This document shows, one piece after another, positions 59,401 to 60,308 of a stretch of DNA of 64,000 bases (its first letter is position 1; every line of letters starts with the position of its first letter). Source of the stretch: Escherichia coli 042. GTDB taxonomy: Bacteria > Pseudomonadota > Gammaproteobacteria > Enterobacterales > Enterobacteriaceae. The position numbers were made by a program, and so were the translations under genes. The notes under the pieces were generated by a model. That model was not told the origin of the DNA. It was given only the letters and a program-made list of their open reading frames with translations, and ran no database searches. The stretch lies in NCBI RefSeq assembly GCF_000027125.1, contig NC_017627.1, one strand, 5' to 3'.

Positions 59401-60036
59401 ATGTTTTCAGCCCCCATCATCTGTTGAGTTTCGGGAGCCGCGGTTTTGACGTTTTGCGGGGACCTGCCTTTTGTTCCCTCCGGTATTCACCATCACCTGT
59501 TTGAGAACCTTCGCCGCAAGGGGCATCACTGCCACGGCCTGACGCACCTGTCCTGGGCAGAACGCAAAATTTTTTACCGGGTTTTGGGTAAAAAATTTTG
59601 TGGGCTGTTCATTTACCCTGGACAGTCAGTGCGGCAGGTTGTGGCTGTATCAGCCCCCGGCGACAGGGGCTTAAACAGGTGAATGGCACCGGACAGAACA
59701 ACGGGCAGGGACCCGCCGCAACGACGTGAAGCGCGGTTTGCGAAACGGCGTTGCGCCTTACATCCTGGCGGCCTTTTGCCGGGATGCCGGGAGCGCAGGC
59801 CACGGCGCGACAGAGGCGGCGCGACCGGAACGGTCGCTGCAAGCCCGGGGTTTTCACGCATCGGACCGTAGCGACAGCCCGAAACCGCGCCAGCGGGTTC
59901 GGCGGAGACTGGCGGGTGCGCCAGCAGCTGCCTGTCGGAGTCGGGCCTGACGACCGGATGCCGCCAGGCAGCCGGGAGCCGAAGGTGCGCCCGGCAGACA
60001 GGACAACACTGCAGTAGTCAGAATCAGAGCGGCAGG
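59401..60036 (-). promoter_or_regulatory. Frpo/ssi-like leading-region repeat, copy 2 (directly upstream of ssb)
   Basis: Near-identical to copies 1 and 3; palindromic core around 59565-59600; the ssb ATG is about 20 bp from the repeat edge. Confidence 0.6.
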
Positions 60037-60308
60037 AAAAAGAAGAGCAGTAGCAGTAGCAGTAGCAGTAGCAGTAGCAGTAGCAGGAGCAGGAGCAGGA
60101 GCAGGAGCAGGAGCAGGAGCAGGAGCAGGAACAACAACATCATCAGTAACAGACAAATGACAGGTCTGAAAAGACAGAAGCCCCCATCAGAACGTCCGCG
60201 TAATGAAAGGGGCGGCGCGTGAGCGCGGCCCCTTTCAGCGCCACCGGCGCGCGGTCTTTTCCCGGCGCGGACAGACGGGCATTTATCCTCCCGCCAGCCC
60301 TGTGTCAT
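60024..60308 (-). CDS. hypothetical 94-aa ORF with a poly-Leu tract, start overlapping the methyltransferase stop
   Basis: Basic N-terminus then about 30 consecutive Leu encoded by the hexamer array; alternative frame 59854-60156 encodes (PA)n(TA)n. May not be translated. Confidence 0.25.
   Translation of the reverse strand: MTQGWREDKCPSVRAGKRPRAGGAERGRAHAPPLSLRGRSDGGFCLFRPVICLLLMMLLFLLLLLLLLLLLLLLLLLLLLLLLLLLLLFFFLPL
60037..60120. repeat. hexanucleotide tandem array (GCAGTA)x6 then (GCAGGA)x8, unique to repeat copy 2
   Basis: Perfect 6-bp periodicity; corresponding positions in copies 1 and 3 have no array. Confidence 0.9.

Follow-up and report, generated by a model that had tools for sequence, protein, structure and literature searches.

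The variable-number tandem repeat (VNTR) locus VNTR-37, also named O157-37, is a plasmid-borne marker in MLVA (analysis of variable-number tandem repeats at multiple loci); it was reportedly described by Keys et al. in 2005 and is said to belong to the PulseNet O157 scheme. A hexanucleotide array that is orthologous to this marker, as judged from its right flank and repeat unit, is present in a stretch of 64,000 nucleotides of Escherichia coli 042 (RefSeq assembly GCF_000027125.1, contig NC_017627.1), referred to below as the window. The array is found near a homologue of a second described class of elements, the single-stranded-DNA promoters called Frpo or ssi class 1, which reportedly go back to Masai and Arai in 1997. 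The array is probably a non-coding, slippage-prone hexanucleotide microsatellite, that is a VNTR, whose length is neutral or nearly neutral.

The repeat unit of O157-37 is 6 bp long (PMC3768571), and whole units are gained or lost at 8.5e-5 per generation in serial passage (PMC3777172). The PulseNet primers for VNTR-37 are printed as GCCGCCCCTTACATTACGCGGACATTC and GCAGGAGAACAACAAAACAGACAGTAATCAGAGCAGC (PMC8461963). Single-stranded-DNA promoters of the Frpo / ssi class 1 type are described for the plasmids F and ColIb-P9 (PMC9849209, PMC12672017), and one of them, Frpo2, was shown to drive early ssb expression in F (PMC9849209). A third group with points of likeness consists of the simple-sequence contingency loci of Neisseria, Haemophilus and Campylobacter.

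A regular-expression scan of the sequence reveals six copies of GCAGTA directly followed by eight copies of GCAGGA (Table 1), and Tandem Repeats Finder delimits the array at 60045-60130 with a period of 6, 14.3 copies and 97% matches. Among perfect repeats with a unit of at least 3 nt and at least four copies, it is the only one in the 64-kb window besides a 9-nt repeat in traD; because it is nearly unique in this respect, it is not a chance feature. The array is embedded in a purine-rich tract that reaches 79% purines per 80 nt. Just three 80-nt stretches of the window contain at least 74% purines, and two of these are the tracts of the first (54319-54472) and second of three Frpo-type repeat units. 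The units are ~0.6 kb in length and are located at 53829-54283, 59399-60039 and 62772-63410. Alignment of the three places the array in unit 2 only, with unexpanded purine-rich sequence at the matching position of units 1 and 3. A preliminary description of this DNA, made from the letters alone, had given the composition and copy numbers of the array exactly and had confined it to the second repeat copy, as the alignment confirms; the array that it placed at 60037-60120 is real, with sub-coordinates that are 10 nt too low.

In the pO157 plasmid NZ_CP038418 (E. coli O157:H7), both VNTR-37 primers match with 0 mismatches, one lying 13 nt left of the array and the other 65 nt right of it; the array is therefore VNTR-37 / O157-37. 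The array of the window has the same period of 6 bp, in 14 units, and shares with VNTR-37 the repeat unit itself (GCAGTA on this strand), the right flank, the site downstream of a leading-region methyltransferase gene and the polymorphism in whole units. The forward primer site is present at 60190 with 2 mismatches, adjacent to the array, and the reverse site is replaced by another left flank; because of this replacement, the orthology is drawn from the right flank and the repeat unit. Unlike in pO157, the array of the window is bordered on the left by the GC-rich segment that belongs to the Frpo2-type unit, instead of the flank that carries the reverse primer. The nearest site that resembles this primer is at 54332, 5.7 kb off in repeat unit 1, and a standard VNTR-37 PCR would therefore not amplify the window allele. 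Both types of left flank are common (54 and 29 of 91 metagenome alleles). As an established epidemiological marker in the fingerprinting of E. coli O157, the array is already known. The new details are limited to a rare compound allele with expanded GCAGGA, the position that the locus takes with respect to the single-stranded-DNA promoter of ssb, and the annotations of open reading frames (ORFs) across it, which are likely spurious. The repeat is not mentioned in the papers examined on Frpo and leading regions.

The array is polymorphic in length. Matches to the region come from more than 5,000 plasmid records, with spans that differ mostly by steps of 6 nt. The array comprises 2, 3, 4, 5, 7, 8, 8, 9, 10, 10, 13, 13, 14, 14 and 16 units in 15 plasmids drawn from these records, while the 91 metagenome alleles have between 3 and 14 units and a broad mode at 5-6, long alleles being probably under-represented by short-read assembly. 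Plasmids typed as conjugative span 2 to 16 units, and one of them harbors the unexpanded allele of 2 units. Closely related O111 plasmids have 8, 13 and 14 units by direct count and ~7 as estimated from the match span, and these differences among close relatives therefore reflect recent change. At a coverage of at least 80%, the locus is found in ~1,570-1,580 of 5,426 complete E. coli genomes. The preliminary description had called the array slippage-prone and had suggested a comparison of its length across related plasmids; the comparison and the published rate of change both bear this out.

The compound structure of the window allele sets it apart, as the expanded second unit, (GCAGGA)x8, is absent from every other allele examined. 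Each of the 15 plasmid alleles contains GCAGGA at most once, and pO157 has GCATGA at this position; the 91 metagenome alleles have exactly one GCAGGA each, a count that is imposed by the search pattern. A metagenome scan for at least three GCAGGA units ahead of the degenerate tail returned none, compared with at least 120 contigs of the common allele type, and no allele identical to that of the window is present in the 5,426 complete E. coli genomes. The compound allele may be a rare real variant or an assembly error.

Some records depart from the single-array arrangement. One metagenome contig contains arrays of 7 units each at 83-124 and 3417-3458, 3.3 kb apart, and another contains arrays of 4 units each at 2748-2771 and 9788-9811, 7 kb apart. 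Each of these arrays is followed by the 3' end of the methyltransferase gene, consistent with either duplication of the module or an assembly artefact. In NZ_CP148534 (1-1420 and ~1500-1560), a group II intron with an ltrA reverse transcriptase/maturase lies ~60 nt to the left of the array, where it replaces the bulk of the Frpo2-type unit and ssb. The O111 plasmids NC_013366, NZ_CP028118 and NZ_CP027308 have no listed methyltransferase coding sequence despite DNA that is ~99% identical, which may reflect a pseudogene or a gap in the PLSDB gene table.

The surroundings of the array are defined by the Rfam matches to FinP and the traJ 5' untranslated region (50772-50881), by tra genes that extend leftwards from ~51 kb, and by the genes to the right, all of which are on the minus strand (a ygeA-like ORF, hok, psiB, a ParB-like gene, ssb, the methyltransferase gene and a DUF3560 gene). 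These homologies and this gene order identify the surroundings as an IncF-type leading region whose plus strand is the one transferred. Along the direction of transcription, the methyltransferase gene comes first; the hairpin, the array, the GC-rich repeated segment and the Frpo2-type hairpin follow, and ssb is last (Table 1). The hairpin that follows the methyltransferase gene is terminator-like with a poor U-tract, its stem is kept in homologues, and the 81-nt segment that contains it folds at -42.5 kcal/mol. A strong GC-rich hairpin of differing sequence precedes each repeat unit in the sense of transcription, the other two being at ~54560-54592 and ~63485-63530, and the three are probably the terminators of upstream operons.

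The sequence at 59380-59853 displays 95.8% identity to that immediately upstream of F ssb (Frpo2) and 91.4% to the Frpo1 region of F, and 59785-59990 displays 96% identity to the ColIb-P9 sequence that lies upstream of ssb. Folding predicts a long plus-strand hairpin at ~59428-59700 (z = -8). By homology, ssb would be driven by this Frpo2-type unit. The ssb family match begins at residue 14 of ORF 58854-59420, and an internal ATG is the likely start of the gene for this reason. The array begins ~190 nt past the end of the Frpo2 homology (59853), and ~350 nt separate it from the promoter hairpin.

Table 1. Features at and around the hexanucleotide array, in coordinates of the window
Feature	Position	Strand	Remarks
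(GCAGTA)x6 sub-array	60047..60082	+	Unit that expands in nearly all other plasmids
(GCAGGA)x8 sub-array	60083..60130	+	Expansion specific to the window
Degenerate triplet tail ACAACAACATCATCAG	60131..60146	+	Varies between plasmids by 3- and 6-nt steps
Purine-rich tract holding the array	60016..60165	+ (transferred strand)	Up to 79% purines per 80 nt
'Poly-Leu' ORF, 94 aa, ~30 consecutive Leu	60024..60308	-	Called hypothetical by PGAP in some records of plasmids; not regarded as a gene
'(PA)n(TA)n' ORF, 100 aa, TTG start	59854..60156	-	Extends into the GC-rich repeated segment; not regarded as a gene
Class I SAM-dependent methyltransferase gene, 187 aa	60308..60871	-	Upstream neighbour of the array in the sense of transcription; substitutions biased to third positions
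GC-rich hairpin GAAAGGGGC(C/G)GCGC-loop-GCGC(C/G)GCCCCTTTC	60205..60236	-	~70 nt downstream of the methyltransferase stop
GC-rich repeated segment	59740..60039	+	Also in unit 3 (97%) and, in part, in unit 1
Class 1 single-stranded-DNA promoter unit, homologous to Frpo2 of the F plasmid	59399..59853	+	Assigned by homology
Plasmid ssb gene	58854..59381	-	Frpo2-type unit upstream

Additional elements of the window were detected with Rfam. The antisense RNAs AS-pc01, AS-pc02, AS-traI and AS-traG, first described on pHK01, match on the plus strand at 62556-62652, 18103-18289, 22256-22332 and 31822-31907, respectively, and the AS-pc01 match adjoins repeat unit 3. An ALIL pseudoknot, the frameshift element of IS3-family transposases, is found at 1577-1693 on the plus strand and indicates that the window has an insertion sequence close to its left end.

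Comparison with the contingency loci of Neisseria, Haemophilus and Campylobacter reveals both likeness and difference. The array resembles them in being a slippage-prone short repeat with a high and reversible mutation rate beside genes of host entry. Unlike theirs, its unit is a multiple of 3, and it is located neither between a -35 and a -10 element nor inside a validated ORF; a change in its length shifts no reading frame and alters no promoter spacing, as a phase-variable contingency locus would. A phase-variation switch that acts by frameshift is ruled out, as the 6-nt unit preserves the frame and all frames are open. A switch that acts by promoter spacing is ruled out as well, since 58800-61000 contains no promoter-like pairs of sigma-70 hexamers. 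The length-variable switch that the preliminary description envisaged is unsupported on the same two grounds.

The array is similar to the Frpo / ssi class 1 promoters of F and ColIb-P9 in that it forms the distal, variable end of a unit with a Frpo2-like core. Unlike these promoters, it falls outside both the homology and the promoter hairpin, and it is absent from F and ColIb-P9. Such a promoter combines homology with a place in the hairpin that rebuilds the -35 and -10 elements; the array has neither, and the neighbouring 59399-59853 has the homology. The tract that is analogous in F is (GAGGAAGAA)n on the transferred strand. In NC_002483 this microsatellite lies at ~8968-9111, upstream of ssb, and reads (CTCTTCTTC)n on the sense strand, with up to 98% pyrimidine per 60 nt. 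In ColIb-P9, the homologous region upstream of ssb contains only ~30 nt of a comparable tract, without a repeat. The tract seems liable to expand, with a motif that differs from lineage to lineage, and such differences between F and ColIb-P9 are the behaviour of drifting low-complexity sequence. A conserved purine-rich element is unsupported, given the short tract without a repeat in ColIb-P9 and the different motif in F.

The same plasmid harbors another tandem repeat whose unit is a multiple of 3. At 25460-25683 on the minus strand, within ORF 25181-27532, ~25 copies of a 9-nt repeat encode (QQP)n in a TraD-like coupling protein of 783 aa, close to its C-terminus; this is a genuine in-frame coding repeat and probably also polymorphic in length. 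Unlike the TraD repeat, which is inside a clearly coding gene, the hexanucleotide array is in a spacer that lacks coding signatures. The locus also differs from a type I toxin-like system, in which a conserved start comes with an antisense RNA: 49 of 120 homologues have lost the start or carry it frameshifted, and Rfam at the gathering threshold has no match at the array, antisense RNAs included, the sok match being located at 54822-54993.

The absence of coding signatures emerges from comparison of homologues. All three minus-strand frames are open through both repeat units, and an ORF across the array therefore means nothing by itself. The sense strand is rich in pyrimidines, made up of Leu, Phe, Pro, Ser, Thr and Ala codons and free of stops in any frame, so that long ORFs are expected as by-products. 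The preliminary description of the ORFs is accurate for the window, with ~30 Leu in a frame whose ATG overlaps the TGA of the methyltransferase gene (TGATGA) and (PA)n(TA)n in another frame; the coupling to the methyltransferase that it proposed is not conserved. Of 120 homologues, 71 have the stop-overlapping ATG in the frame of the Leu run. The other 49 (41%) comprise 24 with a 1-nt deletion, 22 that lack the ATG and three with other indels, in which the spacer is altered by -10, +1 or +4 nt. Indels of 1, 4, 9 and 10 nt are tolerated among 58 aligned spacer haplotypes. The variable sites of the spacer are distributed over the codon positions of the Leu frame as 23/16/23, compared with 36/33/69 in the methyltransferase gene; the spacer counts are from a MAFFT alignment, as unaligned haplotypes of equal length are inflated by hidden compensating indels. 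The share of variable sites is 36% in the spacer versus 24% in the methyltransferase gene. In a set of 12 sequences, third positions account for 4 of 20 variable sites in the spacer and 33 of 56 in the methyltransferase gene (Fisher p = 0.004). With flat codon positions and frameshifting indels, the minus-strand ORFs display no sign of the purifying selection that marks a protein-coding gene.

Two ways in which the array could nevertheless be translated were weighed against these data. As a poly-Leu hydrophobic peptide, it would be read either from the 94-aa ORF, by re-initiation at the TGATG overlap, or from a minimal ORF of 15-45 aa, M(M)LLF(L)nFFFLPL, and slippage would vary the length of the hydrophobic segment; such a peptide is quite unlikely. 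The overlapping ATG is present in the window and in frame in the majority of homologues, yet it is lost or frameshifted in the remainder, the spacer between it and the array admits frameshifts without any bias towards third positions, and the GC-rich hairpin is inside the long ORF. In the minimal ORF, which may yet be translated, the ATG(ATG) just before the array and a TGA 20 nt past it (23 nt with the stop codon) are intact in 16 of 16 alleles examined, but no Shine-Dalgarno sequence is visible on inspection at this proximal ATG. The Leu run in most alleles is composed of alternating CTG and CTA codons, and CTA is the rarest Leu codon in E. coli. In the analogous F tract, an ATG-initiated reading matches one frame at the start and another at the end. 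PGAP, the annotation pipeline, annotates the ORF in several plasmids; across records, it calls one of the two ORFs, both, neither or one on the plus strand, which is the behaviour of spurious calls. None of the poly-Leu ORF, the (PA)n(TA)n ORF and a hydrophobic ORF in unit 1 matches an NCBIfam family, and the papers examined on Frpo and leading regions make no mention of a poly-Leu ORF. The unusual hydrophobic peptide of the preliminary description is thus left unsupported, as its coupled start is not conserved and third-position bias is lacking. The poly-Leu ORF is probably an artefact, and we infer from the sequence comparisons that it is not translated. Least probable of all is a small membrane protein in the (PA)n(TA)n frame, with the N-terminus MSVTDDVVVP, a variable linker whose length would be set by the array and a hydrophobic helix LLFPAALILTTAVLSCL (LLFSAALITVCFVVLLLMPF in pO157-type plasmids). 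This frame does enter a transmembrane-like hydrophobic stretch with both types of left flank, a related hydrophobic ORF exists in repeat unit 1, and PGAP annotates the frame in some plasmids; however, hydrophobic codons are expected of a pyrimidine-rich strand, and past ~20 residues the C-terminal parts are unrelated between the flank types and cross the GC-rich repeated non-coding segment. The only start is a TTG that lacks a Shine-Dalgarno sequence, and unit 3 has no start in this frame at all. The ORF of unit 1 (54288-54536, minus strand) is part of a Frpo1-type unit downstream of hok/sok; it would encode 82 aa and ends in the hydrophobic LTLITAALIIVCFVVLLAVSFPGVPLAG, a stretch that resembles the pO157-type left flank of the array.

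An unlikely explanation that requires no translation is that the purine-rich tract, array included, acts in cis as a spacer while the conjugating DNA is single-stranded; the length of the array would tune early ssb-psiB expression or complementary-strand synthesis. The tract could act by insulating the Frpo hairpin from the upstream hairpin, as an unstructured landing site for SSB, or through a weak RNA(pyrimidine):DNA(purine) hybrid, formed right after that upstream hairpin, that aids the release of transcripts from the single-stranded template. That the spacer eases transcript release or SSB loading, with slippage yielding subpopulations that differ in early ssb/psiB expression or in the timing of conversion, is very unlikely. 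The evidence for a spacer is the recurring layout of GC-rich hairpin, purine-rich tract and Frpo-type unit, with two of the three most purine-rich 80-nt stretches of the window in this position and the almost purely pyrimidine tract (sense strand) of F at the same place. The repeat units of the window are paralogues, however, so that their common layout does not count as independent evidence, and ColIb-P9, where the tract is only ~30 nt long, functions as a counterexample. The predicted fold of the transferred strand leaves most of the array unpaired, as would suit a spacer, but the predicted promoter folding is independent of array length. Across simulated alleles of 0-26 units, the minimum free energy shifts by less than 7 of ~240 kcal/mol, and the pairing probability is constant at 0.76 for the Frpo hairpin and 0.81 for the terminator-like hairpin. 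The lengths found in conjugative plasmids display no preference beyond the broad mode, and the distance to the promoter hairpin also speaks against tuning. An array within the Frpo hairpin or altering its fold is ruled out by the single-stranded fold and the simulated alleles. A DnaG priming site (CTG) was dropped by reasoning only, as it is the non-transferred strand that carries the CTG triplets.

A neutral or nearly neutral microsatellite accounts for the locus as follows. The array occupies an intergenic spacer, bounded on one side by the terminator-like hairpin of the DUF3560-methyltransferase operon and on the other by the Frpo2-type unit that would drive ssb. It would have originated by slipped-strand mispairing in a low-complexity tract that is purine-rich on the transferred strand, with whole 6-nt units gained or lost at ~1e-4 per generation and a length that would drift between plasmid lineages; the long ORFs across it would be by-products of the pyrimidine-rich sense strand. 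The length of the array appears to be free of selection, and we infer selective neutrality. Several points weigh against this explanation. The array site and the purine-rich tract persist across many IncF lineages with two left flanks, which may reflect a constraint on composition. The homologues are ~90-99% identical, which limits the power of conservation tests, and the larger comparison of codon positions is only marginally significant (p = 0.09). The minimal ORF is intact in all alleles examined, and PGAP calls one or both ORFs in many records. The metagenome contigs may carry sequencing errors.

The array in itself is of little consequence, being an established marker that behaves as neutral non-coding DNA. 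The 'hypothetical proteins' annotated across it in many IncF plasmid records are probably spurious. Many F-like plasmids, that of the window among them, have another sequence in place of the pO157-type left flank with the VNTR-37 reverse primer, and null alleles in typing are a possible result. The position of the locus in the leading region, beside a single-stranded-DNA promoter, allows slippage in conjugation, with its two extra rounds of DNA synthesis, to be compared with slippage in vegetative growth. If the tract were a spacer after all, the early-expression programme of resistance plasmids would gain a tunable element.

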